32,417 nt of DNA from IMG/VR virus record IMGVR_UViG_3300045988_085672. The stretch is one strand, 5' to 3'. The notes beneath the pieces were generated by a model. That model was not told where the DNA came from. It searched no databases and saw nothing but the letters and a program-made list of their open reading frames with translations. This document shows, one piece after another, positions 1-32,417 of the stretch. Within the stretch, counting starts at the first letter, position 1, and each line of letters begins with the position of its first letter. Source of the stretch: a virus. The position numbers and the translations under genes were made by a program.

Positions 1-77
1 AGGATCGGTTCAAGCACGTTATCGCAAAGCGAATGTTGAACAACCTTGTCTTTATAGCTGTTCGACATAACCACGCG
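1..77. repeat. Terminal overlap copy A: identical to 32341..32417, indicating circular closure of the contig
   Basis: Read directly. aggatcggttcaagcacgtt...ttcgacataaccacgcg is present at both ends, 77/77 identical. The RT reading frame continues in phase across the join. Confidence 0.95.
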
Positions 78-281
78 GCGCTTCGGCTCGTACACCTCGA
101 ACGTGTTGTACGGCGAAAGCGTGTACTTTTTCGTTTTGAGCTGGTAGCTTAACAGGTTCAGCGCTTCAAGAAGGTTTACTTCAAACTTTGCCGCCGCTCC
201 TTTCCACCTCTTGCCTTGCCGCGCCTTTCGGTAGGCTCTGTATAGGTTCTCGAAGTTATATATCTTCTCGTAATCTGTCAT
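1..281 (-). CDS. DGR reverse transcriptase, N-terminal part; continues at 32417 on the circle, joined product 351 aa
   Basis: ATG at 281 preceded by a GAGGA RBS. My translation is MTDYEKIYNFENLYRAYRKARQGKRWKGAAAKFEVNLLEALNLLSYQLKTKKYTLSPYNTFEVYEPKRRVVMSN..., with no stop down to position 1. It is in phase with ORF 31566..32414 through the 77-bp overlap. Confidence 0.9.
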   Translation of the reverse strand, partial: MTDYEKIYNFENLYRAYRKARQGKRWKGAAAKFEVNLLEALNLLSYQLKTKKYTLSPYNTFEVYEPKRRVVMSNSYKDKVVQHSLCDNVLEPI

Positions 282-448
282 AAAAAATATCCTCGCTGTT
301 TGTAGCCTTTGCCTTCCGCCGCGCGGAATGCTCTGGCATCGGCGATCCTGTATTTGCCCCCGCTGTGGATCGCGGCGGCGGGATACACCTTCCTTTGATG
401 GTGGTATTCTGCTTTCGGCTTGCGCCTACTCGATCTCATTTTCCACCG
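282..448 (-). other. DGR spacer between TR and RT (Sp-like region of the TR RNA)
   Basis: 167 nt non-coding stretch between the TR end and the RT ATG. It contains GC-rich short hairpins, for example ttccgc-cgc-gcggaa near 314..328. The position matches the spacer RNA of characterised DGRs. Confidence 0.5.
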
Positions 449-550
449 AAGCGGGCGAACGCCCCTGTTCCCGTTGTAAGCGTTGTTGTTGTTCAGCGTG
501 CCATCGGAATTGACGTTGCGGACGTTCTGCGCGTTCGACGAATTAGGCGT
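449..550 (-). repeat. DGR template repeat (TR), 102 nt
   Basis: 94/102 identical to VR1 and 67/78 identical to VR2. Every mismatch is at a plus-strand T, which is an adenine on the sense (minus) strand. I counted 28 sense-strand adenines. The sense frame is Asn(AAC)-rich: SSNAQNVRNVNSDGTLNNNNAYNGNRGVRPL. Confidence 0.93.
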
Positions 551-572
551 AACAAGATGTACCCCAAACGGT

Positions 573-977
573 TCACCCTCTCGCACGATCCCGCTTTTTC
601 CACGCGGCTAACATATACTTCACGTCAAGCGCAAGTTTAGACCAATATTCGCAACTGTTCGTTGATATGAAGCCCTGTTCGTGCGAAAGCTCTATGAAAA
701 ATAGAAGCTCCTTGCAATAGGTCATTGCCTTCGCTTGAAGCCTCTGCCGTTCCTTGAATTCCTGCGCGTCCAGAAGGTTTAATTCGTTCGCCTCCAGCGC
801 GCATTCGTAAATATCCACCGCTTTATCCTGTATCCTGTTCACAAGGGTAAATCGGTATTTCTTTGGGAAGCGTTCTGTCGAATTTGTGATCGTGAATGTG
901 TGCTTGATTAAATCTTTGCACTTCACGATTACGTTAAATTCCGAAGGTTCCTTTCTTCCTCGTTCCTGCCTCTGCAT
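573..977 (-). CDS. avd: Accessory variability determinant (Avd), four-helix-bundle family
   Basis: 134 aa, basic and helical. The segment FPKKYRFTLVNRIQDKAVDIYECALEAN resembles the Avd / 23S rRNA-IVS four-helix-bundle family. It lies 22 nt upstream of the TR. Confidence 0.75.
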   Translation of the reverse strand: MQRQERGRKEPSEFNVIVKCKDLIKHTFTITNSTERFPKKYRFTLVNRIQDKAVDIYECALEANELNLLDAQEFKERQRLQAKAMTYCKELLFFIELSHEQGFISTNSCEYWSKLALDVKYMLAAWKKRDRARG

Positions 978-1236
978 TTATGCACCGTCCTTTTCGTATG
1001 CGGTCGATCATAACGGTATCTTCGGCGCACCCCTCGAAATCAAAACCAACCGCCGTAACGAAAAGCGTTGCTTTGCTTCCGGTTACGGTCGTTCCCGTGA
1101 TTGTCAAAGTATCTTCGCCGCAATGCTCGCACGGCGGCGAAAGCTCGACAAACAGATTTCCTATAATGCACGATAATTCCGCCCGTGTGCAAGCGTACCG
1201 TTTTAGCATTCGATACGCTGTAAGTTCTCGTTCCAT
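934..1236 (-). CDS. Possible small hypothetical protein between the tail-fibre-like gene and avd
   Basis: 100-aa ORF (or 91 aa from Met at 1209) with protein-like composition (..ELSPPCEHCGEDTLTITGTTVTGSKATLFVTAVGFDFEGC..). The RBS is weak and it overlaps both neighbours (1203..2093 and avd). Confidence 0.3.
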   Translation of the reverse strand: MERELTAYRMLKRYACTRAELSCIIGNLFVELSPPCEHCGEDTLTITGTTVTGSKATLFVTAVGFDFEGCAEDTVMIDRIRKGRCINAEAGTRKKGTFGI

Positions 1237-2105: not shown

Positions 2106-3230
2106 TTATTTTGTAATCTGACGTATTTGCGTTAAAAGCGCTGGCAAGCTCTCGCCGAAGGTAATATCTATTTCTTCAACGTTGTTTTGGTAGGTTTCCG
2201 CAATCTCCGTTATGCGAACGTCAATGCGAATTCCCCAGCGCTTATTCACGCAAGTAACGCGGTCGCCTAAATCGTAATCGGTTCGGTAGATCAGATTTGC
2301 GAAGGTGTTTACCTTTGAACCGAACGAAAGCGTTTCCGCGTACTGCTCCAATTCCTCCGCGCCTCGGGCGGCAAGAAGCGCTAAATACTCCGGATCGGTT
2401 AGCGTTACTTTTTCGCCGCCTTCCTCTTCATATTCCTGCACTATATCGGTGGCGTTTATGAATACCTCTTCGCGCGTCAATCCTGCTGCCGATCCGCCCA
2501 CTTCGGCAACCTTGCGCGCAACGCCTTCTTTCTCTTCGCCTCCGACGAACGCCGTTGTTTTTAGGTTTTCAATGCTGTTCGTGTATTCCTGTTCCACGAT
2601 GTTGTCGAATTCCTGCGAAAAGATACAAGGTGCATTCCCTGCGGTATTGCCCGCTGTAAGATCGCGCCCTTTATAGACGGAAAAGACGTGCGCGCCTGTC
2701 CTCGCGTCCGTCCGCATTCGTATTCCCAGCTTTGCCGCCTTCGCCGCCGTTTCCGCCGCAAGCTGTGCGTTCGTGTACTGCTCCGAAGTGTAGTCAATCG
2801 TTCCGCTTCCCGTGTCGCTGTCGTCGGTGGCGATTGAAACGTCCGGAATTTTCCGCGCGCTGTCGGTCGGGCTTGTTACGTTTTCCCGTACAATGCGGTA
2901 AAGAATGCTTTGCGTTGTGTCCTTTGTGATGATCTGCTTCTTGATAATCCGCTTTCCGATCCAAGCGATAAGGAATTTCCCTTGAACCTCGATTTCCTCC
3001 AGCCCCTGCGAATTCTTCGTGATATGAACGTATCGGATTTGCGCCGCTTCATCGTCGCCGCGCTTCATAATGATATTGTTTTTCACAAGCATTCGGGAAT
3101 GCTCTTCGGTGAAAGGAACAAGAAGTTTGAATTCTCCGCACGTCCAATAACGCCGCGTCCAGATCAGCGAAGCGATCTTTTCGACAATCCCTTGAAGTAC
3201 CATATCGGAAGAATAAACGTATAATTCCAT
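2106..3230 (-). CDS. Siphovirus Gp37-like minor tail / baseplate protein
   Basis: I place the start at Met52 of the tracked ORF (MELYVYSSDMVLQGIVEKIASLIWTRRYW..). ATG at 3230 lies 5 nt after the Dit stop. It resembles the ReqiPepy6 Gp37-like family from memory. Confidence 0.55.
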   Translation of the reverse strand: MELYVYSSDMVLQGIVEKIASLIWTRRYWTCGEFKLLVPFTEEHSRMLVKNNIIMKRGDDEAAQIRYVHITKNSQGLEEIEVQGKFLIAWIGKRIIKKQIITKDTTQSILYRIVRENVTSPTDSARKIPDVSIATDDSDTGSGTIDYTSEQYTNAQLAAETAAKAAKLGIRMRTDARTGAHVFSVYKGRDLTAGNTAGNAPCIFSQEFDNIVEQEYTNSIENLKTTAFVGGEEKEGVARKVAEVGGSAAGLTREEVFINATDIVQEYEEEGGEKVTLTDPEYLALLAARGAEELEQYAETLSFGSKVNTFANLIYRTDYDLGDRVTCVNKRWGIRIDVRITEIAETYQNNVEEIDITFGESLPALLTQIRQITK

Positions 3231-3234
3231 ACCG

Positions 3235-4122
3235 CTACACCCCCAAATACAAGTTATTGTGATAAATAGATACTTCGAGATTTTCCGCGTTCGTGTCCGC
3301 CGAATATCGGAAAAGATTATCACCCACGGCAAGCTGTAAGTATGAGCTATCAACGTCCAAATAGCGGAAAGCGTCGCTTTCAACGCCGCCGCTTAACAGT
3401 TTCACGGATTTTTCGCCGTACCCCGTCGATACGGTCAGCACGTCGCCCGCTTCAAGCGAAATATTCGCTTTTATGAGCTCCTGCGTATTGACGTTCAAAA
3501 GCTGTGGATTTGTCAGCGCACCCAGCGCGCGAAACTCGATCCGGATACCGCTTTTCACGTCGCCGGAATTGAATACGTTTACGATCAGCGAAGGCTGGCG
3601 GTAGCCGATTTCCCAATCCGGCGTTATCTCCAGCCCGTCCGGAACGGGGAATTCAAAGCCGCCGATCCACGTTGCTATATCCTCCCGCGTTTCCGCCTGT
3701 TCGCGCCAAAACGGATTAAGGCACGAAAGCTGGATTGTGAATTGCTCGAAAATCGTTCCGCGCTTGAAAATAGGCGCGTTGTTGATCGTGCAACCGATAA
3801 CCCGCTTGAAGTCGCCCAATTCATAAGTAAGCGTCGCGGAATACTGCGGATTTAGTATCCTGTTCAAATTACGTCGCAAGTCCTGTATTGCGATTTTGTC
3901 CCGCTCCTTGATATGTCCTACGATGTCAATATCTCGGCTTTCAATGCGGTATCCTAAATAGGTATCGCCGTCCTGCCCCATACTATTTGTTGAATAAATA
4001 GCGTTCTGAACGTCGGACAATCCGGAAACGTCCTTGAAGTTTACGTGATAAGAAGAAGCAGGGGAAAAGACAATGCTTTCCCCCCGCTCGTTTGTGTAGG
4101 TCAATTTCTCTTGTATTTTCAT
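3235..4122 (-). CDS. Distal tail protein (Dit, Sipho_tail family)
   Basis: 295 aa. The start overlaps the TMP stop (TAATG). This is the canonical position after the tape measure, and the sequence style matches Dit proteins. Confidence 0.7.
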   Translation of the reverse strand: MKIQEKLTYTNERGESIVFSPASSYHVNFKDVSGLSDVQNAIYSTNSMGQDGDTYLGYRIESRDIDIVGHIKERDKIAIQDLRRNLNRILNPQYSATLTYELGDFKRVIGCTINNAPIFKRGTIFEQFTIQLSCLNPFWREQAETREDIATWIGGFEFPVPDGLEITPDWEIGYRQPSLIVNVFNSGDVKSGIRIEFRALGALTNPQLLNVNTQELIKANISLEAGDVLTVSTGYGEKSVKLLSGGVESDAFRYLDVDSSYLQLAVGDNLFRYSADTNAENLEVSIYHNNLYLGV

Positions 4123-7052
4123 TAGGTCATTACCTCCCGCGCGATCATTCTAAACTGCCGCGCCGCCTCGCGCTGTTGCTGGGCGTAGGAAGTTTCGTTT
4201 GCGTAGATGTTTTGCACCACCTCGAAACGTGTTTCCGGTCTGCCGCCTCTGCGCGGGCGCGGATTATCGTTATCGGGAACGGCGTTGTCCGTTGCCTTGC
4301 GGATTGATTTTTCAACGCCTCGCATTTCTCGCCCGAAGCCTTCGCCGATCCCCTGCGCCATATACGCGCCGATACCCGCAAAGACTTTCGACGGGGAAGC
4401 GATCTGCATTTCATCTTCAACCGCCGCGACAATTTCGCGCATCATCGAACGCACGCGGCTTTCAAGCCAACCGGACATATTTTGAAAGCCTTGCCAAATA
4501 CCGCGCACCATATCTTCGCCCGCCGCCGTGAATTCCGATACGAAGGAACGAAGCGCCGTCAAAACAGGCTGTACGATCTGCGCCACCTTGCTTGTGATCT
4601 GCGGGATACCCTGCACCATTCCGGAAGCGATATTCTTATCAATCGTAACGCCCGCTTCAATAAACTTCTGATTTTGCGCGTTGAAGGCGGTAATAATGCT
4701 TTGCGTGATCTGCGGTATCTTCGCGGTAATCTGCGGGATTGCGGTTATCATACCGGAAGAAATATGCCTGTCGAAGTCCTGTCCCGCTTGATTTAGTCTT
4801 TGTGCCTGTGCGGTCAGCCCGCTTATAACCCGCTCGACAATCGCGTTTACGGCTCCGGAAAGCCCTTCGATATTTGCTATGATACCGTCGTTCACCGCGC
4901 GCACCGCTTCGGCGGCTGTAAGCTGTCCCGCTCCGCCCATTGCGGCGGTCATATCAGCCGAAACGCCGTCCATACTTTCCCCGAAGCCTACGCCTACACC
5001 TTCGCCCATATTCGTACCGATTTCGGCGAATACGGTAGAAGGGGAATGAATGCCGAAAAAGCCTTTAATCCCGTCCACAAGGGAAGAAGCCCAGCCCGTT
5101 ACCTTATCCCAAAGCCACGAAGCCGCGCTTGAAATGCCTTCCCATAAACCGTGAAGAAGGTTCGCGCCTGCGTTCACCATTTCACCGACAAGGGAACCGA
5201 ACGCCGATACGATCCCGCTAACAATTTGCGGAACCGCTTTGACAATTTCAACAATGATTGTCGGCAAATTCTGAATGAGCGCCACGAAAAGCTGAACGCC
5301 CGCTTGAATAATCTGCGGGATATTCTGCACAAGCGCGTTTACAATCCCGCTGATAATCTGCGGGATTGCCTGTACGATCGTCGTTATAATCTGCGGAAGC
5401 GCCTGTATCAGCGCCACAAGAAGGTCAATACCCGCTTGAATGATAAGCGGTATATTTTCAAGAAGCGCCGTAATGATCCCGTTTATAATCTCCGGAATAG
5501 CCGCCACAATCGTTGCTATGATTTCCGGAAGGGCGGTAATAAGGGAAGTCAAAAGGTCGATACCCGCTTGAATGATCTGCGGGATCGCCGAAAGCAACCC
5601 GTCAATAAGGCTTGTAATCAGCGTAGGAAGCGCCGCTACAAGAACGGGGATCGCGTTTATGATACCCTGTGCCAGCCCTGTAACAAGCTGTAACGCGGCA
5701 TCTATCAGCAACGGGATATTGTCGATCAGCACTTGCACAATATCGGTTACAAGCTGAACCAGCGAAGGAACAAGCGTCGGCAAGGCTTGCGCTATTCCCG
5801 TCGCAATATTTGCGATCATCTGAAAGGCAAAGTTTATGAAGGTCGGTAACATTTCGGTTAGCTTTTGGATCGCAAACGTTACCATTCCCAGCAATCCGTC
5901 CGTAAACTGTTGCGCCGCGCCTTCTGCACCCGTAAGCGCACCCACCAAGCCGTTTCCGATAAGCTCGACGAACGGCGTAATCTGTTGCAGAAGATCCGCC
6001 GCAAGCTGTTTCAGCTTTGTAACGATCGGTTCTGCGATCGCTCCCAATTCCGCCATTGCGCTATTAAGGGAAGCCGTCGCCTTCTGTGCGTCGATAATAT
6101 CGCCGTTTACCTCTCTGTATTTTTTCGCCGCGTCGGAATATAGCCCGTTCAGCGTTTCCGTAATCAGCGCTTGCCGTTCTTGCTCTGTACTGCACTTATC
6201 AAGGCTGGCTTGAAATTCATCTTCCGAAACGCCCGCCCAATTCAAAGCATCTGCAAGCCCTCCCGTAATCGCGCCCGTTTTCGCGGTTTCGTTTGCGGCT
6301 TCGGTTAAGTTTTCAATAGGCAAGCTGTCGCCGAAGGTCGCATATACGCCCGTTGCTATATCCGTCCACGTCGCAAGCTCTTTTTCGTTGTTCGTAAGTT
6401 TCGCAAGGTGGGCGGCGGCTTCGGTCGCCTGTCCGTCGTCGCCTAAAATGCCGTATAACTCCGTATAGGTGTTCTTTGCATCTTCTGCCGAATGTCCCGC
6501 CGTTGTGAAGCCCGTTTCCAGCTTGCCCATATTTTCGCGGGCTTCGCGCGTACTTTCGGCAAGCCCCAAGAATGCACCCGCCGCCGCTCCGATTGCCGCA
6601 CCCATTGCGGCAACCCCTGCGCCGATCGCTTTTCCCACTTTGCCTACGGTTTCGCCGACGCTCTCCCAATCAATCTTTGACTTTTTCAGTTTTTCGGAAG
6701 TGTCGTCGATTTCCTTTTGAATTTTTACCATATCGGCTTTTGTGTTGTTCAAAGCCGTTTGCATTTTCTGATATGCGGGATTTGTAGGTTCGATCCCGCC
6801 GTCGCGCATTTTCTTCAAGGCATCTTCTGCGGCTTTCGCCTTTTTTGCCTGTTCTTCAAGCGATTTTTTTAGAATATCCTGTTTCCGTGTCAGCGCGTCG
6901 ATGCTTTCCGCATTGTCGCCGAATTCAGCCGTCGCCAGCTTCATTTCCGAACCGATTTCGCGAAGGGAAGTGTTGATACCCTTACAGGCGGAACGGTATT
7001 CTTTTTCGCCTTCAAGAATAATTTGCGATTTGATTTGTTCTTCCTTCGCCAT
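4122..7052 (-). CDS. Tail tape measure protein
   Basis: 976 aa. It has an N-terminal coiled coil, Gly/Ala-rich hydrophobic segments and tandem 44-aa repeats. It lies directly after the G/GT chaperone genes. Confidence 0.92.
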   Translation of the reverse strand: MAKEEQIKSQIILEGEKEYRSACKGINTSLREIGSEMKLATAEFGDNAESIDALTRKQDILKKSLEEQAKKAKAAEDALKKMRDGGIEPTNPAYQKMQTALNNTKADMVKIQKEIDDTSEKLKKSKIDWESVGETVGKVGKAIGAGVAAMGAAIGAAAGAFLGLAESTREARENMGKLETGFTTAGHSAEDAKNTYTELYGILGDDGQATEAAAHLAKLTNNEKELATWTDIATGVYATFGDSLPIENLTEAANETAKTGAITGGLADALNWAGVSEDEFQASLDKCSTEQERQALITETLNGLYSDAAKKYREVNGDIIDAQKATASLNSAMAELGAIAEPIVTKLKQLAADLLQQITPFVELIGNGLVGALTGAEGAAQQFTDGLLGMVTFAIQKLTEMLPTFINFAFQMIANIATGIAQALPTLVPSLVQLVTDIVQVLIDNIPLLIDAALQLVTGLAQGIINAIPVLVAALPTLITSLIDGLLSAIPQIIQAGIDLLTSLITALPEIIATIVAAIPEIINGIITALLENIPLIIQAGIDLLVALIQALPQIITTIVQAIPQIISGIVNALVQNIPQIIQAGVQLFVALIQNLPTIIVEIVKAVPQIVSGIVSAFGSLVGEMVNAGANLLHGLWEGISSAASWLWDKVTGWASSLVDGIKGFFGIHSPSTVFAEIGTNMGEGVGVGFGESMDGVSADMTAAMGGAGQLTAAEAVRAVNDGIIANIEGLSGAVNAIVERVISGLTAQAQRLNQAGQDFDRHISSGMITAIPQITAKIPQITQSIITAFNAQNQKFIEAGVTIDKNIASGMVQGIPQITSKVAQIVQPVLTALRSFVSEFTAAGEDMVRGIWQGFQNMSGWLESRVRSMMREIVAAVEDEMQIASPSKVFAGIGAYMAQGIGEGFGREMRGVEKSIRKATDNAVPDNDNPRPRRGGRPETRFEVVQNIYANETSYAQQQREAARQFRMIAREVMT
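5190..5720 (-). repeat. Four tandem ~44-aa repeats inside the tape measure
   Basis: aa 445..621 read as IPxIIQAG(I/V)xLxxALIxxLPxIIxxIVxAIPxIIxGIxxALxxN, four times in a row. Confidence 0.8.
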
Positions 7053-7262
7053 TTACAACCCTCCTAATATGTCGTCAATATCGGCTTCCGGCTCTTCCGG
7101 CTTGAAGCGATCCGGATTGAATTGTTTGTGTATCCTAAAAAGCGTTAAAATTTTATACGGTGTCATTCGCCATACTTCGGCTTCGCTCCACCGAAGAAGC
7201 GTAACGCCGATATAAAGAAGGCGGGCAAGGTCAATTACTCCTTGCCCGCCGCCGCGTTTTTT
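7053..7262 (-). CDS. -1 frame extension of the tail assembly chaperone (GT-type fusion product)
   Basis: The -1 frame is open from the slippery site. It reads KKRGGGQGVIDLARLLYIGVTLLRWSEAEVWRMTPYKILTLFRIHKQFNPDRFKPEEPEADIDDILGGL and stops at 7053..7055, directly abutting the TMP ATG. Confidence 0.75.
   Translation of the reverse strand, partial: KKRGGGQGVIDLARLLYIGVTLLRWSEAEVWRMTPYKILTLFRIHKQFNPDRFKPEEPEADIDDILGGL
7220..7262 (-). promoter_or_regulatory. Programmed -1 ribosomal frameshift signal
   Basis: Slippery heptamer A_AAA_AAC (7262..7256) in the zero frame gga aaa aac. A 5-nt spacer gcggc follows. Then an 11-bp perfect stem ggcgggcaagg/ccttgcccgcc (7250..7240 with 7230..7220) with a 9-nt loop that contains the G stop codon. 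Confidence 0.75.
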
Positions 7263-7633
7263 CCGTTTTCGTTGTCCTCTCCGTCGTCCTCTTCCTCTTC
7301 ATCGTCGCGGGCGGGCGGTTCTGCCGTCCCGTTGTTTCCCATCGAAAACGCTTTGAAGATAGATGATTTTACTTCAAGGAAATTGCCCGTATGAATGAGC
7401 TTGCCCACCTGTTTTTCGGTAAGCTCTTCTTCTCCGTCCTCTGCGCCCTCGTTCAAAAGCAGGGTAAGAAGCCAGCGAAGGTTTTTAATGCTGTCCTTTC
7501 CGGAAAGCGCCGTATCAAGGCGATCAAAGCCGCCGAATTTGTCTTGCATTTCGTCAATCACGTTCAAACTGAAAAGAAGATGTCTTTCCTTGTCAAGCGT
7601 GATCGGGAAGCGTCCGTCTTTAATTGCACTCAT
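7235..7633 (-). CDS. Tail assembly chaperone (G-like)
   Basis: 132 aa with an acidic C-terminus, between the major tail protein and the TMP. It carries the frameshift site near its 3' end. Confidence 0.75.
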   Translation of the reverse strand: MSAIKDGRFPITLDKERHLLFSLNVIDEMQDKFGGFDRLDTALSGKDSIKNLRWLLTLLLNEGAEDGEEELTEKQVGKLIHTGNFLEVKSSIFKAFSMGNNGTAEPPARDDEEEEDDGEDNENGKNAAAGKE

Positions 7634-7670
7634 AAAACAATAAGCGGGAAGCCGTTTCCGGCTCCCCGCT
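7634..7670 (-). terminator. Hairpin plus T-rich tract after the major tail gene (attenuator-type terminator)
   Basis: Minus strand reads agcggggagccg-gaaa-cggcttcccgct followed by tattgtttta. The stem has 12 bp with 1 mismatch. Confidence 0.45.
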
Positions 7671-7685
7671 GTACCCCCTTTCTTG

Positions 7686-8246
7686 TTATGCCGCCGCGTT
7701 GTTCGGCTCTCTTACCGTAGTAAACCACGCCGCCGCTACGCTCTCCGTAGGCAAAGCGACGTGTTCCGCCTTCCACAACCCGTCCGAACGTTTGATAAAC
7801 TGTCCGACGATCTCCGGCGTAGTAAATTCGATACTGTCGCCCTTTGTCGTGTAGTTTTCGGACGGGATCGCAAACTTCACCTTGTAAAGCCAAATGTACT
7901 TGTATGTTCCGCCCGCCTTCTTTGCGCGGAAGCCGATTGCAAAATAAGGCGGTTCGTCGGTGTCCGCTCCGTAAACCACTTTGTCGTCGTCCTGCTTCTG
8001 CCCAAGAAGGGCGGCAAGATCAACCGGAAGAAGGTCATTGACGTTCAGCGTCAATTCTCCGGATACAAATTCCTTCACTACTTCGTCGGCTCCGTCGTCA
8101 GCGTAAAGGATCGCTTCTGCAACCTCCACGGAAAGCTCCGCCGAAATTGCCTTCGCCATCTTTACAGGCGCGCCGTATTCCTCCGCGCCGTCCTCGCCAA
8201 TCGTAATAGGTGCGCGGTAAAGGTCGCGCAAACCGATTGTTGCCAT
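7686..8246 (-). CDS. Major tail protein (phi13-like family)
   Basis: Start at Met27 (MATIGLRDLYRAPI..), ATG at 8246 with a GGAGG RBS. 186 aa, in the typical position and with typical sequence style. Confidence 0.8.
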   Translation of the reverse strand: MATIGLRDLYRAPITIGEDGAEEYGAPVKMAKAISAELSVEVAEAILYADDGADEVVKEFVSGELTLNVNDLLPVDLAALLGQKQDDDKVVYGADTDEPPYFAIGFRAKKAGGTYKYIWLYKVKFAIPSENYTTKGDSIEFTTPEIVGQFIKRSDGLWKAEHVALPTESVAAAWFTTVREPNNAAA

Positions 8247-8250
8247 ATTC

Positions 8251-8580
8251 TTATACCTCCATATACTTAAATTCCACGGGAATATGATAATAACCCGTGC
8301 TTTCCTCGAACACTTCCGGATCAAACGTGATCCCGTAGAACCCCGCTTCCTTCAATGCCCGCTTTGCGCTCCGCATAAGGGCGATATAATCTACGCGGGA
8401 ATAAATATCCGCCCTGTACGTGAATTCCTCCGCGCCGCTTTCATCGTCTGAAAAGTGTTTGTCCTGCAATACGACAATCTGATACGTGATAAACGTTTTT
8501 GCCTTTCCGTCGTATTTCAGCCGTTCTACGGGACAACCCAGCTTTTCAAGTGTTGTTTTCACAAGTGTATCAACGTTCAT
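8251..8580 (-). CDS. Tail terminator / tail completion protein
   Basis: 109 aa, lying between the HK97 gp10-like protein and the major tail protein. Confidence 0.5.
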   Translation of the reverse strand: MNVDTLVKTTLEKLGCPVERLKYDGKAKTFITYQIVVLQDKHFSDDESGAEEFTYRADIYSRVDYIALMRSAKRALKEAGFYGITFDPEVFEESTGYYHIPVEFKYMEV

Positions 8581-16544: not shown

Positions 16545-17234
16545 TCAAAACAGCGTTGTTTGCGTTGCCTTTTCCTGTTCCTCCAGCAGATCAAACAGGC
16601 GGATTTGCGCTTTCTCTTCTTCAAGCCGCCTGTTCGCCGCCTCGAAATATTTTGCATTGATTTCAAAGCCCACATAATCAAGCCCGCCGATCCGCTGGCA
16701 AGCGACAAGGGAACTTGCGCTTCCGGCGTGCGTGTCTATAATCTTCATACCCTTTCGGGCAAACAGGGATAAAACCCATTCATACAGCTTCACGGGCTTT
16801 TGCGTAGGGTGGATCGTCCCTTCGATCTGCAATTCAACGCGGTTCAACGTGAAAATCCTTGTCGGCGTGTCAAAGCTGGTGTATGCAAGCTCGCAATCGG
16901 ACATTGAAAGCCCGCGTTGCCCCTTGTCCCATATAAGCCAGCCTTTATGCGCCTGTTTCAGCATCGGAACAAAGTAATTCCCGCCCCATATGATTTGATT
17001 TTGTGATACCCGTTCAAGCTCTCTGAAATATTCTTCGGTCGGTGGCTTCTTGTCCCAGCCTTCCCGCGAATGCTCCTTCCTGTTGTGTTTTGGATTAGTG
17101 CAAACGCGCTTTCGCTGTCCGTCAATCCCGATCCCGTAAGGCGGATCGACAATCGCAAGATCGAAGAACCCGTCCGGAAATTCCTTCATTCCCTGCATAC
17201 AATCCAAATTGTAAAGCCTGTTCAATTCAAGCAA
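16545..17234 (-). CDS. DNA methyltransferase, beta class (N6-A or N4-C), DPPY motif
   Basis: 229 aa with a TTG start 9 nt after AGGAGG. Motif IV (IVDPPYGIG) is N-terminal and motif I (IIDTHAGSASS) is C-terminal. Confidence 0.85.
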   Translation of the reverse strand: MLELNRLYNLDCMQGMKEFPDGFFDLAIVDPPYGIGIDGQRKRVCTNPKHNRKEHSREGWDKKPPTEEYFRELERVSQNQIIWGGNYFVPMLKQAHKGWLIWDKGQRGLSMSDCELAYTSFDTPTRIFTLNRVELQIEGTIHPTQKPVKLYEWVLSLFARKGMKIIDTHAGSASSLVACQRIGGLDYVGFEINAKYFEAANRRLEEEKAQIRLFDLLEEQEKATQTTLF

Positions 17235-17375
17235 TGCCGATCGCCTCCTTTCTTTCTTCTCCCACCCCTCCGCCCCTCCCGCTGGGAGGGGAACAGGCTC
17301 AAAGGAATAAACCCAGCGCCCGATCCGTTATGCACATTTCCCCAGCTTTCATTGTGGAAAAGTTGAAGCCGCCTT

Positions 17376-17528
17376 GATAGATTTTCTTTCCCCGTCGCCG
17401 CCCTGCTCCTATCACTCACGGATCACCCCGTAAAGGTCAAGCGGCTTCGCCGTGCTTCGCAACCTTGACGGGCTGAACCGTTCGTGATCTCTGATAAACA
17501 GGCGACGGGGAATAAACGAAAATCTATC
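17376..17528. other. Large nested inverted repeat in a 377-nt non-coding gap (candidate origin or structured RNA)
   Basis: gatagattttc (17376..17386) pairs with gaaaatctatc (17518..17528). ttccccgtcgcc (17388..17399) pairs with ggcgacggggaa (17501..17512). Internal stems are gatcac/gtgatc and gtcaag/cttgac. Confidence 0.6.
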
Positions 17529-17611
17529 TTCAATGCTCCTTCTGTGATCGAAGCTGTGCTTCGTCGCCAAACGTTACACATTTACAAGGCTTTATAAACG
17601 CTGATCCGAAA

Positions 17612-18367
17612 TCAGCTTTTGCCGTCCTTTGCCGCTCGTTTGCGTTTCCGCTTCGGCGGCTCTAACACATACTTAAAATAAAGGTATCCATACTTTGTGC
17701 TTTTCGTTTCTACTAATATATAGCCCTTCGGCGGGCGCGGCGGCTTGCTCTCTGTGTAAATCCTTTTCGCAACGGTTGGCGTTTCCCGTTCCGGCTTCCG
17801 CGCGTTGCGCGTCTGCTTCCAACGGTGTCCGCCCTGCTCCGGTGTCCAATGGTCGAAAAGGTAATTCGCAAGCCCCGTGTAATCCTGTCCGTGATCTACG
17901 CCGTCGTAATAATTGTGTTCGCGTAGATGGTCGATCCGGACGATACTTCCGTAAATCCATTGTTTCTTGATCGCTTCTTCCGGTACGCCGTCCGAAAGCA
18001 TATGCGCGTGAATTCTGTTCGTGTTCTTGCCGCGTCCTAAATAAATAAAGATCACGGCATCGGGGAAAGCGTATTTCAGCCGCCGCACGAATAGATCGCG
18101 TATCCGCTTTGCTTCCTTGAAGGTATGTACTTCGTTTTCGTCGTCCAGCGTCAGCGTGCTATATAATGAACGCGGGGAAAAGTTTTCATTTACCAGCCGC
18201 GCGTGTTTTCTTCTTGATATTCCGATCCGGTGTTGTTCCCGTTTTTCCTCTGTCTTAAATCGCGGGCGCGGTTCGGCTTTCTTTATATCGGTAAGCCTGT
18301 CCGATATGTTGAAAACTTCCTGTTCGCATACAGCGCCCGAAAATATCCTTCTTTTTACTCTCTGCAT
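17612..18367 (-). CDS. HUH-type rolling-circle replication initiator (Rep)
   Basis: 251 aa. Motif I-like YSTLTLD, HUH motif RIHAHML, and Tyr motif DYTGLANYLFDH, in the canonical order. Confidence 0.6.
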   Translation of the reverse strand: MQRVKRRIFSGAVCEQEVFNISDRLTDIKKAEPRPRFKTEEKREQHRIGISRRKHARLVNENFSPRSLYSTLTLDDENEVHTFKEAKRIRDLFVRRLKYAFPDAVIFIYLGRGKNTNRIHAHMLSDGVPEEAIKKQWIYGSIVRIDHLREHNYYDGVDHGQDYTGLANYLFDHWTPEQGGHRWKQTRNARKPERETPTVAKRIYTESKPPRPPKGYILVETKSTKYGYLYFKYVLEPPKRKRKRAAKDGKS

Positions 18368-19034: not shown

Positions 19035-19658
19035 TTACCTTCCTTCCCCGAAAACCTCTTCTGGCTGAACGTCCCACGCCGCCGCAATATGCTTCATCAT
19101 ATCCACCGCTTCGGCGCGTTTCTTCATATCCCCGTCAAGGTAAGATTTCAAGATTTCAGATTTCAGAACACAAAGCGGGCGAACGCCCCCGTCCCCGTAG
19201 CAAGCGCTGTAGTAGCTCAGCGTGCCACCGGAATAGACGTTGCGGACGTAAGAATTTTTCGGGCTGTCCGGTGTAGCCGTCCACCACCAAGCGTCCGGAA
19301 GCTCCGGAATGTTGCCGCGAAGAAGCCTGTATTCGTCGCACGTGATAAGCCCGACGCGGACGCGATCGCCGCCGTAGTCCTTCAAACCGTCGTCGGCTGT
19401 CAAGTCTATATCGAAATGCTCGAACATTTCTTCCGGCGCGCCCGCTCCGATCAACTTTTGCAGGAATTCGCCGTTCAAGAACGCGCGAATATCAGACGCG
19501 GCGAAATCGTTTCGGTTCTGCGCGTCAAAAGCGCCGTTTCCGATACACTCCGAAGCAATGCACTTCACCCAGCTTTCGGCGGTCTGAATGATTGTGAATG
19601 CGATCCCGCCGATCGTGATTTCCTGTTTCGGCGCGAAGCCGTGTTTGTTCTCTGTCAT
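19035..19658 (-). CDS. DGR target protein 2 (DUF6273-like / C-type-lectin-like variable domain), 207 aa
   Basis: Start at MTENKHGFAPKQ.. (ATG 19658). It contains ..WWWTATPDSPKNSYVRNVYSGGTLSYYSACYGDGGVRPLCVLKSEIL.., which is paralogous to the VR region of target 1. VR2 is embedded at aa ~137..162. Confidence 0.85.
   Translation of the reverse strand: MTENKHGFAPKQEITIGGIAFTIIQTAESWVKCIASECIGNGAFDAQNRNDFAASDIRAFLNGEFLQKLIGAGAPEEMFEHFDIDLTADDGLKDYGGDRVRVGLITCDEYRLLRGNIPELPDAWWWTATPDSPKNSYVRNVYSGGTLSYYSACYGDGGVRPLCVLKSEILKSYLDGDMKKRAEAVDMMKHIAAAWDVQPEEVFGEGR
19173..19250 (-). repeat. DGR variable repeat 2 (VR2), 78 nt
   Basis: It aligns to TR 449..526. There are 11 mismatches, all at TR plus-strand T (sense A). 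Homology stops abruptly after position 78. Confidence 0.9.
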
Positions 19659-19714
19659 ATTGAAAAGCCCCTTTCTTATATATAATAGGTATATCCGCAC
19701 CCGCTCGCGGGCGT

Positions 19715-20047
19715 TTAACACTTCTTGCCGCCGTGTCGATACGGGCGGCTTTTGTTGTATTCGTGCTTCTGCGAAATTGCCGCGTCAATGTCAATTCCCG
19801 CATATCCGCAATAATCAAGAACGCGGATAATCACGTCGGCAAGCTCGATCGGTATTCCTTCCGGCTTCCCGTTGTTTCCGGTGTAAACCTCCGTAGGCAA
19901 GCGCCCGTTGCGGTATTCCTCCAGCGCTTCGGATACCTCCGAATGAATGAGCGCCAGCACTTCGGGAAAGCCGCGTTCTTCGTCCCACCAGCCGTGATCG
20001 ACGGCGTTTTCGTGAATTTGCCTTGCAACCTCGTTAATTCCTGTCAT
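19715..20047 (-). CDS. MazG-like nucleotide pyrophosphohydrolase
   Basis: Start at MTGINEVARQIHENAVDHGWW.. The segments ..LIHSEVSEALEEYR.. and ..ELADVIIRVLD.. give the EExxE and ExxD style motifs. Confidence 0.75.
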   Translation of the reverse strand: MTGINEVARQIHENAVDHGWWDEERGFPEVLALIHSEVSEALEEYRNGRLPTEVYTGNNGKPEGIPIELADVIIRVLDYCGYAGIDIDAAISQKHEYNKSRPYRHGGKKC

Positions 20048-24670: not shown

Positions 24671-25705
24671 TTACGCGGCGGCAATATGGACGGTGAACAA
24701 GTCGTTTGAAGTCGCATATCCTAAAATTTCGCGGGGATAATTATTGATCCAAGCTTCGACGCGCCGAATATATGCGGCGGTTACTTTCCGGAAGTCCGTT
24801 CCTTTTGGAAGGAACCGCCGTATCATTTTGTTTATATTCTCATTCGTTCCTCTCTCGAATGCGCTGTAAGGGTGGCAATAGTAAGCCTTCGTGCGCTTCC
24901 GATCCTTCCCGTAAACAGAACGTTCAATTCCGGCGCAGTCTGCGAATTCTGATCCATTGTCAAACGTAATGCTTTTGAATATCCTCGAAAATCGTTTCCC
25001 GTAACGCCGTTCCAGCTTGTTCAACGCCGCCACAATGCTTGCGGAAGTCTGATCCGGTATCTTCATAATGATTTCTTGCCGTGTCAACCGTTCCGAAAGC
25101 ACAAACAAGGCTTCCTTTGTCTTTTTCTTTCCGCATACGCAATCGCCTTCCCAATGCCCGAAGGTTTTTCGCTCTCCGATCTCCGGATCGCGTCTTTCTA
25201 TGCTTTCGCCCGCCGACGTGCGGGCGGATTTTTTGCGATCCACCTTGTCGTACTTCCTTTTGCGTTTTCCTTTTTCCGGCAAATTCTCGCGGCTGATCCC
25301 GTAAAATATTCCTTTGTCTATGTAATTATAAATCGTCTTTTCGCTGATCTCTGTTTTGAAGGTCAGCCCCAGCCGTTTAATTTCTCCGACAACGGCGGCG
25401 GGGGAATAACCTTCTTCGCCGATTTTCTTTTCGATAAAGGCGGCTAATTCGTAATCATTCCCGATCTTCAAGTCGCCGCCTTTCGCTTTTAGGTTTTCTT
25501 CATAGCGTTGTTGTGCGATTTCCGGCGAATAGCGTTCTTCCGTCGTTAAGTCGGAATTCAAATGCGTATAGGTTCCTCGCTTGATTTCTCTGTATATAGT
25601 TGTGTTATGGACGTGCAGACGGTCAGCGATCTTGCAGGGCTTCAAGCCCTCTTTCAACGCTTTTTCGATTTTAAGGCGATCTGTCCACGTTAAGTGCTTG
25701 TGCAT
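24671..25705 (-). CDS. IS30-family DDE transposase (possible phage integrase function)
   Basis: 344 aa with an N-terminal HTH (LTWTDRLKIEKAL..IADRLHVHNTTIYREIKRG). The catalytic triad context is HWEGD, FDNGSEF and ERGTNEN. A GGAAGGAGG RBS precedes the ATG. Confidence 0.88.
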   Translation of the reverse strand: MHKHLTWTDRLKIEKALKEGLKPCKIADRLHVHNTTIYREIKRGTYTHLNSDLTTEERYSPEIAQQRYEENLKAKGGDLKIGNDYELAAFIEKKIGEEGYSPAAVVGEIKRLGLTFKTEISEKTIYNYIDKGIFYGISRENLPEKGKRKRKYDKVDRKKSARTSAGESIERRDPEIGERKTFGHWEGDCVCGKKKTKEALFVLSERLTRQEIIMKIPDQTSASIVAALNKLERRYGKRFSRIFKSITFDNGSEFADCAGIERSVYGKDRKRTKAYYCHPYSAFERGTNENINKMIRRFLPKGTDFRKVTAAYIRRVEAWINNYPREILGYATSNDLFTVHIAAA

Positions 25706-29284: not shown

Positions 29285-29848
29285 TTATGTCTCCCTTCCT
29301 GTTACTTCTTCCCATTGCCACAAGGAAGGCGTATCGGGCGGATACACGCAATTTGGCATATCCGCTTTTGCAAGATAGACTTTTCCTTTGTAGCTGTAAT
29401 ATTTCCCGTTCTGGACGTTTACGACGATCCCCGCCGTTTCCGGATAGGGGATCGGATCGTCAATCGTTCCCGTGTGTGTAAGCTCCACAAGGCGGTAATA
29501 AGCGAAGGTCGTTTCAACGGGATAGGAAACGGCGTTCGACGTGTGCGCGGCGATAATCTCGTAATATCTCCCGTTATACTTGATGATTTCGCCCACAGTG
29601 TTATAGGCGTGCGCGTCCTCGTATTCCGGATATTCGATAACCTCCGCCGATTGCAGGATCATAGCGTCGGAAATGATGTTCGTTTTTGCCGCGCGATCCT
29701 GTGCGATCTGCGCCTTGAACGACAACGCAAGAAGGGCGGCGGTACTTTCGCCCGCTGTCTTTACTTCTTGTGTTTCTTTCTTTACTTCCTGCAATTCCTT
29801 CTTGATTTCCGCGTTTCCGCCGCCGTCTTTGTTATGTTTCACGCTCAT
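29285..29848 (-). CDS. Putative carbohydrate-binding (CBM5/12-like repeats) protein coupled to DGR target 1
   Basis: 187 aa. The ATG overlaps the target-1 stop (ATGA). It has two aromatic-rich repeats: ..YNTVGEIIKYNGRYYEIIAAH.. and ..KYYSYKGKVYLAKADMP..PSLWQW.. Confidence 0.4.
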   Translation of the reverse strand: MSVKHNKDGGGNAEIKKELQEVKKETQEVKTAGESTAALLALSFKAQIAQDRAAKTNIISDAMILQSAEVIEYPEYEDAHAYNTVGEIIKYNGRYYEIIAAHTSNAVSYPVETTFAYYRLVELTHTGTIDDPIPYPETAGIVVNVQNGKYYSYKGKVYLAKADMPNCVYPPDTPSLWQWEEVTGRET

Positions 29849-31581
29849 TCAAAATTACCTCCGATCCCCGATACCCAGCACGCGGTCAGCGCGTCGCCGC
29901 GCTCCACGGTTACGCGGATATTCAAGCCAAATTGAACCGCCGTGTTGGTTTTGTTCTTGAACACGTGCGCCAGTCCTGCGATAACTGCGTTTGTGCAATC
30001 CTCCCAAATAGGCGCTACGTCGTAAGGATTGTTGCACGCTTCAACCTTAAACGTGCCGCCCGCCGGAATATCCCTGTTTACTTTGATATTGCACCGCGTC
30101 GGCTGTCTGTTTGCCTCCAGCGGCTCCGAAAGGGAAATTACAAAGCTGTTGATCGCCTTTGTGAACGTGAGTGTTCGCGTTGCGCTGTTTCCGGCGCTAT
30201 CGGTCGCGACAATCTCGATCGTGTGCTGGGCGTTTGTCAATCCCGTAAACGTGTTCCCGCTTACGGAAAGGGTAAGCGTTGCGCCCAGCGCGATATTATT
30301 TCGCGTGTTGAACGTGCTTCCGTCGATCTTTTCTACAACGTTTACAACGTCCTTATCCGGATCAGTAACGCTATATTCATAGGTGAAATCCTCTCGCTTC
30401 ACGCCAAGATCAGCGTTCTGCCCGCTGATAACGGGCGGCTGATTGTGAATTACCGCGATCGCTCCGCTTGTCGTGTACGCGGAAGAATTGCCCGCCGTGT
30501 CAACCGCCTTCACGCGGTATTGCAGGGTGTTCCACGCCGTCGATACCATTTCCGAAAATGTGCGCGCGGCGGAACTCTGAACCTGTGTCCACGATCCGCT
30601 GTTTGCGCTCCGCTCGAAAACATAGGTCAGCGCATCGCCGTCCGGATCGGTCGCCGCCGCGCAAGAAATTTCGATATTCTGCCCGCTGTAACATTGTTTC
30701 GGCGCTGTAATGCTGGGTGGCGCGGAAGGCGCGGCGTTGTAGATGATTTCATAATTCCCGCTTGAATTCGGATTGTCAGATACCAAGATTGAAGATTTCA
30801 GATTACAAAGCGGGCGAACGCCCCTGCTCCCGTTGTAAGCGCTGATGTAGTTCAGCGTGCCATCGGAATTGACGTAGCGGACGTACTGCGCGCTCGACGA
30901 ATGAGGCGTGCGAAGCCACCAATACCAGCCCTTTGAAGTTGTAAAATTGCTGTTTGTGTATTCCGAATTGCTTACGCATTCCGGCGTAGGATAGGCGACG
31001 CGGGAAGCGTCGTTGCTGAATAGGGCAAGGCGTGTGCCTTCTGCGATCCCGTTTTCGTTTGCAAGCCCCACTTCGGTGGTAGATGCAAGAAACATTTTCG
31101 CCGTGAAGGTTTCATAACTTCCGCCGTCCGTCGAAGATTTTACGACGGTAAGCGTTGTGTTCATAAGCTCCGCAACGAATTTCGGATCAAGCATAGCAAG
31201 GAAGCCCGCCCAAGCGTCGTATTCGTTGTAGTTGTCCCATACGTTCGCATTCGTCGGCGGCGCGTCCTGTCCGTGCTTTGCGCTGTACCATTTGCCCGCC
31301 GCCGCGTTGCTGTTCAGCCATTGCAAAATGTTTGAATGAATATGCCTGTTGTTGCCGTAATTCTTCCGGTCGCTGTTGCTGTTGCTCGGTTCCTTTGCGT
31401 CCGAACACATAAGCTGGATAATCTTTTCGGCGATCAGCGTAACGGAATTCGCCGGATACCCGCTATGGTTCTTGTCCGCAATCTTGAATACGATCTTCGC
31501 ACCGAAGCGCGATTGATACGCCGGAAGAACCGGAACTTCGATTTTTGTTCCCACGGCAAGGGAACTTAATGCTTTTGACAT
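29845..31581 (-). CDS. DGR target protein 1: tail-fibre/receptor-binding-like protein with an N-terminal DUF6273-like variable domain and C-terminal FN3/Ig-like domains
   Basis: 578 aa from MSKALSSLAVGTKIEV.. (ATG 31581, AGGAGG RBS 7 nt upstream). It overlaps the RT stop by 16 nt. VR1 lies at aa ~225..258 (..WYWWLRTPHSSSAQYVRYVNSDGTLNYISAYNGSRGVRPL..). About 320 aa of beta-rich repeats follow. Confidence 0.85.
   Translation of the reverse strand: MSKALSSLAVGTKIEVPVLPAYQSRFGAKIVFKIADKNHSGYPANSVTLIAEKIIQLMCSDAKEPSNSNSDRKNYGNNRHIHSNILQWLNSNAAAGKWYSAKHGQDAPPTNANVWDNYNEYDAWAGFLAMLDPKFVAELMNTTLTVVKSSTDGGSYETFTAKMFLASTTEVGLANENGIAEGTRLALFSNDASRVAYPTPECVSNSEYTNSNFTTSKGWYWWLRTPHSSSAQYVRYVNSDGTLNYISAYNGSRGVRPLCNLKSSILVSDNPNSSGNYEIIYNAAPSAPPSITAPKQCYSGQNIEISCAAATDPDGDALTYVFERSANSGSWTQVQSSAARTFSEMVSTAWNTLQYRVKAVDTAGNSSAYTTSGAIAVIHNQPPVISGQNADLGVKREDFTYEYSVTDPDKDVVNVVEKIDGSTFNTRNNIALGATLTLSVSGNTFTGLTNAQHTIEIVATDSAGNSATRTLTFTKAINSFVISLSEPLEANRQPTRCNIKVNRDIPAGGTFKVEACNNPYDVAPIWEDCTNAVIAGLAHVFKNKTNTAVQFGLNIRVTVERGDALTACWVSGIGGNFE
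30808..30909 (-). repeat. DGR variable repeat 1 (VR1), 102 nt
   Basis: It aligns to the full TR 449..550. There are 8 mismatches, all at TR plus-strand T (sense A). Confidence 0.93.
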
Positions 31582-32417
31582 TTTTCCGCCTCCTTTGAAT
31601 TGAAAAGCCTGTTGTAATAGTGATCCGTTCGCCGGATCAAGTGATAACAATTTCCCTTTGCGGCGTGTCCCCGCCAGCTTTTGTAAGATTGTTCGACGGT
31701 CGCCGTTATGATTTTGCCCCGCTCCACAAGTCCGCGCATTTTCTTCAATTTGCGCTTCATATTGTTCTTGCTTCTGCGGCGCACCTTCCGGATTACCGCG
31801 CCCGTTTCGGTCAAGTAAGTGTGAAATCCCAAGAAATCCACCCCGTTCCGAAGCGGGTAAATGTTCGTTTTGTTGTTCAAGGACAAGCCGATCGCGGCAA
31901 CGTGTTTTTCGATCTCCGCGCGGCAATACTGCAAATAGGCTTTATCTTCGTGTATCAAGAAGAAATCGTCCATATATCTTCCGTAGTATTTAATGCCAAG
32001 CTTTTCCTTGATGAAGTGATCTAAATTATTGAGGTAAAGAAGGGCGAAAAGCTGTGAAGATTGATTGCCGATCGGAATTCCGACGTTCCCTTCTGTGCTG
32101 TCGATTATCATTTCGACAAGCCACAAAACGTCCGGATCGGTTATCTTCCTGCGGATTAAGGTTTTTAACACGTCGTGCCTAATGGAATAGAAGTATTTTG
32201 ATATATCACCCTTCAATATCCACCCGTCAATCCCGTTTTTACGGTAAAACCTCCGCAAGAATTCTTGAAGCCTGTCTAACCCGTAATGCGTACCTTTGCC
32301 CACTTGCGAAGCGTAGTTATCCGTTATGAACGATCTTGTAAGGATCGGTTCAAGCACGTTATCGCAAAGCGAATGTTGAACAACCTTGTCTTTATAGCTG
32401 TTCGACATAACCACGCG
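31566..32417 (-). CDS. DGR reverse transcriptase, C-terminal part (continues from 1..281 on the circle)
   Basis: The motif IGNQSSQ is the DGR-clade [I/L/V]GxxxSQ signature. The catalytic box is YMDD (RYMDDFFLIHED). The C-terminal segment ..SYKSWRGHAAKGN.. is also present. Confidence 0.92.
   Translation of the reverse strand, partial: RVVMSNSYKDKVVQHSLCDNVLEPILTRSFITDNYASQVGKGTHYGLDRLQEFLRRFYRKNGIDGWILKGDISKYFYSIRHDVLKTLIRRKITDPDVLWLVEMIIDSTEGNVGIPIGNQSSQLFALLYLNNLDHFIKEKLGIKYYGRYMDDFFLIHEDKAYLQYCRAEIEKHVAAIGLSLNNKTNIYPLRNGVDFLGFHTYLTETGAVIRKVRRRSKNNMKRKLKKMRGLVERGKIITATVEQSYKSWRGHAAKGNCYHLIRRTDHYYNRLFNSKEAEKCQKH
32341..32417. repeat. Terminal overlap copy B (identical to 1..77)
   Basis: Read directly, 77/77 identical. 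Confidence 0.95.

Follow-up and report, generated by a model that had tools for sequence, protein, structure and literature searches.

A probable working diversity-generating retroelement with two C-type-lectin targets and a covarying spacer RNA in a siphovirus-like phage of gut Clostridia

The IMG/VR viral contig IMGVR_UViG_3300045988_085672, whose full 32,417 nucleotides (nt) are referred to here as the window, carries across its ends the parts of a diversity-generating retroelement (DGR): a reverse transcriptase (RT), the accessory variability determinant Avd, a template repeat (TR), a spacer and a target gene with a variable repeat (VR). The locus raises the question of whether these parts form a working element, and of what that element diversifies and how. 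We conclude with high confidence that it is a working DGR of the phage nd12, or ‘tentaclin’, family, carried by a temperate and siphovirus-like phage of Oscillospiraceae (Clostridia) of the gut, with a genome of ~32.3 kb. The DGR, its two targets and its gene order are already published for nd12-like phages. What is new is modest: an RNA model backed by covariation, a host clade with cultured lysogens, the siphovirus-type tail genes and the position of target 2 among early genes.

The repeats themselves support this conclusion. Exactly three copies of a 102-nt repeat occur in the genome. One of them, the TR (449..550, minus strand), is the non-coding copy, situated between avd and the RT gene. 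A previous interpretation of this DNA made from its letters alone, hereafter the sequence-only reading, had claimed a TR of 102 nt with 28 sense-strand adenines at 550..449, and this is confirmed on the minus strand. VR1 (30808..30909, minus strand) matches all 102 nt of the TR and encodes residues 225–258 of target 1. VR2 (19173..19249, minus strand), at a distance of 11.6 kb from VR1, comprises 77 nt equivalent to TR positions 26–102 and encodes residues 137–162 of target 2. All eight mismatches between VR1 and the TR fall on TR adenines, which make up 28 of the 102 bases (p ~3e-5), as do all ten mismatches of VR2, where adenines make up 21 of 77 bases (p ~2e-6). Every one of the 28 TR adenines occupies codon position 1 or 2, and VR1 and VR2 are read in the same frame; VR1 holds 17 variable codons (~2.7e16 possible peptides) and VR2 holds 12 (~4.9e11). 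The last 17 nt of the repeat, GGGGCGTTCGCCCGCTT, are GC-rich, free of adenine and identical in all three copies, and homology ends there, one base before the duplex H2 described below.

The same pattern extends to relatives. IMG/VR holds 210 contigs encoding a close relative of the RT, of which 80 were fetched for comparison, and the cassette is collinear in these. In 57 distinct TR/VR1 pairs there are 796 mismatches, of which 774 lie on TR adenines, with a spectrum at those sites of A>G 363, A>T 334 and A>C 77. Over 44 distinct cassettes the most conserved stretches are the TR (mean entropy 0.16), the spacer and the avd–TR gap (0.19 each), and the most variable is VR1 (0.54), avd and RT scoring 0.27–0.29. 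The nearest relative (L003) is 97% identical over 6.5 kb; its TR has no differences, the 600 nt before VR1 have one, and VR1 has ten, all ten at sites of TR adenines. An identical TR and a near-identical flank, combined with VR1 changes at TR-adenine sites only, are the signature of recent mutagenic retrohoming, and the DGR looks recently active.

A separate observation concerns another relative (L020, IMGVR_UViG_3300045988_019455), in which the TR (3734-3835) carries A-to-N changes at 14 family adenine positions. These are confined to its 5' two-thirds, and several are common to its own VR; it looks as if this TR had been overwritten by VR-like or cDNA sequence. Since 11 of the 12 remaining TR-to-VR mismatches in this relative lie at adenines, its DGR seems to have been active after the overwriting.

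Assembly of the cassette requires the contig ends to be read correctly. Bases 1-77 are an exact copy of bases 32341-32417, a 77-nt terminal direct repeat, so that the contig represents a circular genome with a true length of 32340 bp and an assembly overlap. This overlap falls within the RT gene, the duplicate copy (32341..32417, no strand assigned) being placed outside it. The sequence-only reading had joined RT segments 281..1 and 32417..31566, which counts the 77 duplicated nt twice and breaks the frame; the corrected join, 281..1 with 32340..31566, is 1056 nt long and encodes 351 amino acids. Its 5' part (1..281, minus strand) contains codons 1–93 and the first two bases of codon 94, and its 3' part (31566..32340, minus strand) includes the stop. 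Otherwise the parts lie where they had been placed, with avd at 977..573, the TR at 550..449, a spacer of 167 nt and an RT of 351 residues. They follow one another along the transcript as avd, TR, spacer, RT and target, and the DGR is complete and intact, as had been proposed. Minus is the coding strand of nearly all window genes.

This layout had been presented as a departure from the best-known DGR order. As a second set of relatives we compared 64 loci from GTDB genomes, their RT identity reaching down to ~48%. In a scan of related GTDB loci in Clostridia, a TR/VR pair was detectable in 48, and in 44 of these the gene directly after the RT holds the VR, so the layout is the norm for this lineage. 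It also agrees with a published survey (Wu et al. 2018), in which 48 DGR layouts were recorded and an avd-TR-RT core with variable target position constitutes architecture B1. Two targets occur in 13% of the DGRs surveyed there, and those of phages frequently have a second target at another site of the same prophage.

The target 1 ATG (31581) overlaps the RT stop (31568..31566) by 16 nt, as the sequence-only reading had noted; the overlap is annotated identically in phage nd12, and a ribosome-binding site, AAAGGAGG, precedes the ATG. The overlap is thus conserved, and an avd-to-target operon with translational coupling is plausible. The single transcription unit which that reading had drawn from the overlap is still inferred.

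The RT carries the motifs IPIGNQSSQ and YMDD, which fit the DGR-clade motif 4 pattern [ILV]GxxxSQ and YxDD. Its best match in the Protein Data Bank (PDB) is the Bordetella DGR enzyme bRT (8ub7_A, E=2.4e-42, residues 6-335), and it belongs to PHROG family phrog_1423 (E=1e-135).

The avd gene (573..977, minus strand) is an open reading frame (ORF) of 134 codons whose product belongs to phrog_3206, ‘Avd protein of DGR’ (E=2.2e-29). Of 18 members of its family, 13 match Pfam bAvd. Because sequence searches of the PDB gave no match, its fold was approached through a single-sequence AlphaFold model, which has four helices (pLDDT 81.7), and a Foldseek search with that model. The top structures are the S23-family pentamers 2gsc and 2rld (template modelling (TM) score 0.70-0.73), and Bordetella Avd follows at ranks 11-13 (8ub7_B and 4dwl). 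The PHROG match and the four-helix model with an S23/Avd-type fold agree with the sequence-only claim of an Avd-like four-helix bundle, and the protein models as a divergent S23/Avd-type bundle.

How would the TR be copied? The spacer (Sp; 282..448, minus strand) is a structured non-coding RNA of 167 nt, and its folding is supported by covariation. Thirty-five segments, each bounded by the avd stop and the RT start, were aligned (A1), and the consensus fold of this alignment was reduced to 38 pairs outside the TR. In this fold 99.5% of cells are paired and eight pairs show compensatory double changes; none of 500 shuffles reaches the observed value, and partner-slid versions give 0-1. In an Rfam scan of the window the spacer matches no curated RNA family. 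A 102-residue ORF starting with GTG (278-586, minus strand) covers both TR and spacer, but what is conserved in this region is RNA structure, with its compensatory changes, rather than codons, and the ORF is therefore most probably spurious.

Two duplexes flank the TR, all strands and elements of the fold lying on the minus strand. H1 lies directly 5' of the TR and pairs 565..554 with 391..380. Its 5' strand, GGGGUACAUCUU (554..565), occupies the gap between the avd stop and the TR and is a candidate strand of the ‘cPRT stop’ duplex; its 3' strand, AAGGUGUAUCCC (380..391), is preceded by a conserved CAAAGG. Across the 64 GTDB loci H1 is retained through many compensatory changes: 272 of 276 H1 cells are paired over 23 distinct strand pairs, a value reached by none of 2000 partner shuffles, and at 9 of 12 positions two or more types of Watson-Crick pair occur. 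For this comparison the upstream strand was anchored on a conserved motif, its distance from the avd stop varying among these loci. H2 lies directly 3' of the TR, one base past the TR/VR homology, and pairs GGUGG (443..447) with CCACC (400..404), that is 447..443 with 404..400. Its 5' strand is a candidate template strand of the template:primer duplex. One H2 pair changes from G-C to A-U in nine sequences and to G-U in three, and is broken in none. The base next to the 3' strand, A399, marks the predicted cis-priming region; we infer a priming role for it in parallel with Sp A56 of the Bordetella DGR.

The remaining elements form a series of hairpins and single strands. H3 (417..426) is a GGC-GCAA-GCC hairpin with a GNRA-type loop and a candidate Avd-binding stem-loop; its stem changes from G-C to C-G in two sequences, and distant relatives keep it with a variable loop and length. 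H4 (356..379), a stem-loop of seven pairs directly after H1, shows U-A to C-G changes in 12 sequences, and distant clades retain a hairpin in the same position. It is followed by the single strand AAAUACAGGA (346..355), near-invariant in A1, kept as (U/C)AAAYACA in distant clades and a candidate analogue of the A-minor or thumb-ring element. Finally, H5-H8 (293..345) form a long interrupted stem, a candidate RT-binding element whose 3' strand abuts the RT ribosome-binding site; one pair changes from A-U to G-C in 15 sequences, with more compensatory changes elsewhere in the stem.

This order of elements is that of the Bordetella bRT-Avd-RNA complex solved by cryo-electron microscopy (cryo-EM; PDB 8ub7), which has a duplex at the TR 3' end, an upstream-spacer duplex, a stem-loop, an A-rich single strand and a long stem. 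Handa et al. (10.1101/2023.10.23.563531) name them as template:primer duplex, ‘cPRT stop’ duplex, short stem-loop, adenosines, single-stranded ‘thumb ring’ and RT-binding stem, and predict such elements in 207 of 278 Avd-containing DGRs. The window differs from Bordetella in two details: the H1 upstream strand lies in the avd–TR gap, the Bordetella strand being inside avd, and ~8 nt separate the two spacer strands, compared with 2 in Bordetella.

From these elements a mechanism can be proposed. The cassette, from avd through TR, spacer and RT to target 1, would be read within a late transcript. The RNA from past the avd stop to before the RT start would fold so that the TR is looped out between the two duplexes, whose pairing is evident from covariation, with the stem-loop, the A-rich single strand and the long interrupted stem after them. 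On the Bordetella analogy, the RT and a pentameric Avd would bind the spacer RNA, cDNA would be primed in cis near A399 beside H2, misincorporation would occur opposite the 28 TR adenines, and synthesis would stop at H1; on this analogy the priming beside H2 and the stop at H1 are very probable. The cDNA would then replace VR1 in target 1 and, with its 3' 77 nt, VR2 in target 2, an outcome seen in the substitution pattern. Homing may proceed via the A-free, GC-rich 3' end GGGGCGTTCGCCCGCTT. The predicted result is a varied surface hairpin in two C-type-lectin-fold binding domains, with ~1e16 and ~1e11 peptide variants.

Two explanations deny that this is a working DGR. One assigns the RT to a different class (group II intron, retron or Abi/DRT defence) and takes the 102-nt repeats for stretches that lectin genes share as ordinary paralogues. 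Group II intron RTs are a sister class, similar over fingers, palm and thumb, and the best NCBIfam model for the RT is indeed a group II intron RT/maturase (TIGR04416), albeit at 114 bits against a cut-off of 300. Retron St85 scores 39.9 bits (cut-off 235), Drt3a 66 (cut-off 200) and other retron and Drt models lower, so that the RT reaches the cut-off of no NCBIfam model for group II, retron or Drt enzymes; NCBIfam appears to be without a DGR-RT model, as none is among the RT matches. In the PDB, group II intron RTs reach ~1e-17 (67 bits to 7uim_D), 25 orders of magnitude behind bRT, the best solved relative, and an Rfam scan of the whole window found neither group II intron nor retron RNA. 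One repeat copy is non-coding between avd and RT, the mismatches are adenine-specific and directional, and TR/VR pairs and Avd, foreign to group II introns, are present. An RT that grouped with group II intron, retron or Abi enzymes had been named as an outcome that would overturn the sequence-only reading; by PDB and NCBIfam scores the window RT sides with DGR RTs. A DGR-class enzyme is strongly indicated by these comparisons, and we consider another RT class extremely unlikely.

The other explanation is a decayed relic, whose parts are recognisable, whose targets are no longer diversified and whose VR differences are old. Several observations lean that way or otherwise weigh against a working DGR. 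Avd is divergent from the curated models: it matches them over its full length but below their cut-offs (NCBIfam DivGenRetAVD, 8.9e-11, 42 bits against 80; Pfam bAvd, 6.6e-7, 30 bits against 40), and it finds no PDB sequence, Bordetella Avd included, either by phmmer with the single protein or by hmmsearch with a profile of the 18 family members. IMH and IMH* could not be delimited from the sequence, and, unlike in Bordetella phage BPP-1, a search of the DNA that follows VR1 and VR2 gave no conserved hairpin or cruciform. A CCCGCTT...AAGCGGG after VR1 was considered as a BPP-1-like hairpin and rejected, being unconserved in relatives and absent at VR2. Promoter and terminator scans around the cassette found none above shuffled expectation, so that for the operon they give no support either way beyond the overlapping genes. 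The priming and stop sites are assigned by analogy, and ongoing variation is read from differences between assembled genomes and not from reads within a sample. Set against decay are the intact ORFs, the catalytic YMDD, a TR and spacer more constrained than the coding genes and the nearest relative, in which an identical TR and a sole change in the 600 nt before VR1 stand beside ten TR-adenine changes within VR1. A relic is therefore very improbable, and we return to the working DGR and its targets.

Target 1 (29845..31581, minus strand) is a ‘tentaclin’-type protein of 578 residues, with an N-terminal DUF6273 (C-type lectin) domain (Pfam, 2.2e-34, residues 45-263, holding VR1) followed by Ig-like domains (Big_13/Big_9, residues 380-474). 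It is 80% identical over its full length to nd12 target 1 and matches phrog_10993 from end to end (1.3e-197). Baykov et al. 2023 (Int J Mol Sci 24:17324, PMC10743442) described tentaclins as a new family in which an N-terminal C-type lectin precedes three Ig-like domains and the VR is close to the 5' end. Target 1 falls within this definition, and its lectin domain probably adopts the fold published as models of the nd12 protein.

Target 1 could be a receptor-binding tail fibre, in which case the DGR would switch host tropism as with Mtd in Bordetella phage BPP-1. The gene position suggests a tail-tip protein: it stands at the end of the tail module, after genes for Dit, Sipho_Gp37 and a 296-residue virion structural protein and before the lysis genes, a place usual for receptor-binding proteins in siphoviruses of Gram-positive hosts. 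The protein itself argues otherwise. Its variable lectin domain is N-terminal and its conserved Ig-like domain C-terminal, an order opposite to that of most fibres. Pfam and NCBIfam searches found no tail-fibre domain, and PHROGs file the family under ‘Hoc-like head decoration’. Baykov et al. (PMC10743442) proposed an adhesin anchored by its C-terminal Ig domain, maybe binding bacterial or host-mucosal ligands. A tail fibre is possible, and we lean somewhat away from it. The sequence-only reading had set the cassette in the tail module, between baseplate-type genes and a fibre-like target; its setting at the end of that module, just before the lysis genes, holds, and the ‘fibre-like’ nature of the target is not established.

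Target 2 (19035..19658, minus strand) is a protein of 207 residues with a single C-type lectin corresponding to the C-terminal part of DUF6273 (Pfam, 9.5e-10; phrog_9958, 1.2e-41), and is 74% identical to nd12 target 2. Its gene lies in the early, DNA-metabolism/replication module, between those for a MazG-like pyrophosphatase and a replication initiator. In nd12 the target 2 coding sequence (31285..32178, holding nd12 VR2) has an N-terminal DUF3310 (Pfam, 2.5e-16). The window region (19035-19721) is without this domain, nd12 having ~230 nt extra there, and DUF3310 is encoded nowhere in the window. In the literature on the early lactococcal phage protein SaV, DUF3310 is a domain of that protein. 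Gene position, the nd12 fusion and this SaV literature are the grounds for reading target 2 as an early, non-structural, cytoplasmic lectin-fold binder and not a virion receptor-binding protein, a reading we put forward only as an unlikely one.

The two VRs also share sequence beyond the repeat. A conserved 33-nt flank, TGTAATCTGAAATCTTCAATCTTGGTATCTGAC (30775..30807, minus strand), follows VR1 and is identical at 26 of 33 nt to that after VR2 (19140-19172), with seven shared residues all encoded by identical codons and tandem GAAATCT-like units; the target genes are otherwise unrelated outside the VR. Among VR1 orthologues the wobble entropy of the flank is 0.39, compared with 0.50-0.69 elsewhere in the gene. 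Gene conversion, a recent common origin or a signal at the DNA level could each account for the shared flank. Because distant clades keep the peptide LxSxxLVSD of the VR1 flank and not its nucleotides, protein constraint or gene conversion is the likelier cause, and a DNA recognition element was left at low probability.

Around the cassette, the genes upstream of avd encode a tape measure protein, Dit, the Sipho_Gp37 tail protein and the 296-residue virion structural protein (phrog_1220). Also upstream is a small conserved ORF (934..1236, minus strand; phrog_21058, E=3e-18), which shares 44 nt with the start of avd. Target 1 is followed downstream by genes for a CBM5/12 protein, a conserved protein of 99 residues (phrog_1863), which may be a holin, and an amidase endolysin. 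The tail genes within 2106-8324 are of siphovirus type, with a major tail protein (phrog_88), a 976-residue tape measure, Dit and Sipho_Gp37, and no sheath-sized ORF occurs among them. The tape measure gene contains tandem direct repeats of 33 and 132 nt (4590-5790), unrelated to the DGR; such repeats are typical of tape measure genes. An IS30-type DDE transposase (24671-25705, minus strand; phrog_4646, E=8e-134) may act as the integration enzyme of the temperate phage, as it is the only gene of integration/excision type among the ORFs scanned. Every protein was assigned to some PHROG family.

The closest described system is that of nd12 (OR777946), which shares 80% nucleotide identity over 81% of the first 25 kb of the window and a collinear cassette running from the structural gene through the small ORF, avd, TR, spacer, RT and target 1, with its 16-nt overlap, to the lysis genes. 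Both have a 102-nt TR with 28 adenines and two targets, one with an N-terminal C-type lectin and Ig-like domains whose VR falls in the 5' half of the gene, the other a small, distant C-type lectin protein using the 3' part of the TR. The RT is ~85% identical to that of nd12, and the TRs differ at 12 of 102 positions. Baykov et al. (PMC10743442) reported the nd12 DGR with its 28 TR adenines and two targets, the second a small C-type lectin protein using ~20 of the adenines, and found the same TR in 13 further genomes; the spacer RNA was not analysed there. Apart from the DUF3310 domain, which only nd12 target 2 carries, the systems differ in two further respects. The window has siphovirus-type tail genes, whereas nd12 was called a small myovirus with a tail sheath gene, and the relatives of the window include Oscillospiraceae prophages, whereas no nd12-like prophage was reported (PMC10743442). 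In the nd12 GenBank record, the genes are labelled ‘hypothetical’; the small ORF is annotated long (17163..17549) and avd truncated (17554..17799), the full 134-residue avd ORF being 17395..17799.

With the Bordetella phage BPP-1 DGR (mtd-avd-TR-brt) the window shares full-length RT homology, the Avd fold, the avd-TR-spacer-RT core, adenine-only mutagenesis and a C-type-lectin target. Unlike BPP-1, whose target lies upstream of avd and has a C-terminal VR, the window has its target downstream of the RT, with the VR mid-protein (578 residues), and a second, non-adjacent target. By description, the DGRs of Faecalibacterium prophages (PMC11792537) are also alike, being carried by Clostridia gut prophages and having DUF6273 targets with the VR at the C-terminal end of the domain. 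Lelie, CP11, Roos and Pioen have DUF6273 targets, Mushu and Brigit ‘Hoc-like’ ones, and some of these prophages pair one large with one small target protein. They are nevertheless different phage lineages with low sequence identity to the window phage.

With more than 200 related contigs in IMG/VR, this is a very common gut-phage DGR, of which the window is a clean, complete and circular reference copy. Prophage relatives occur in GTDB genomes of Oscillospiraceae and further Clostridia, where they sit in large contigs, with the cultured isolates Hominicoprocola fusiformis CLA-AA-H269 and Neglectibacter caecimuris M00184 among these genomes, which makes Oscillospiraceae the likely host clade and supplies cultured lysogens. 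If target 2 does prove to be an early, non-virion protein, one DGR with one template would diversify both a virion adhesin and a host-takeover or counter-defence protein; we know of no DGR that diversifies a protein of the latter kind. The RNA model extends the claim of conserved cis-priming and stop elements, made from Bordetella cryo-EM, to a Clostridia phage lineage. It is a covariation-based model of what the RT-Avd complex should recognise, and it names concrete bases for mutation.

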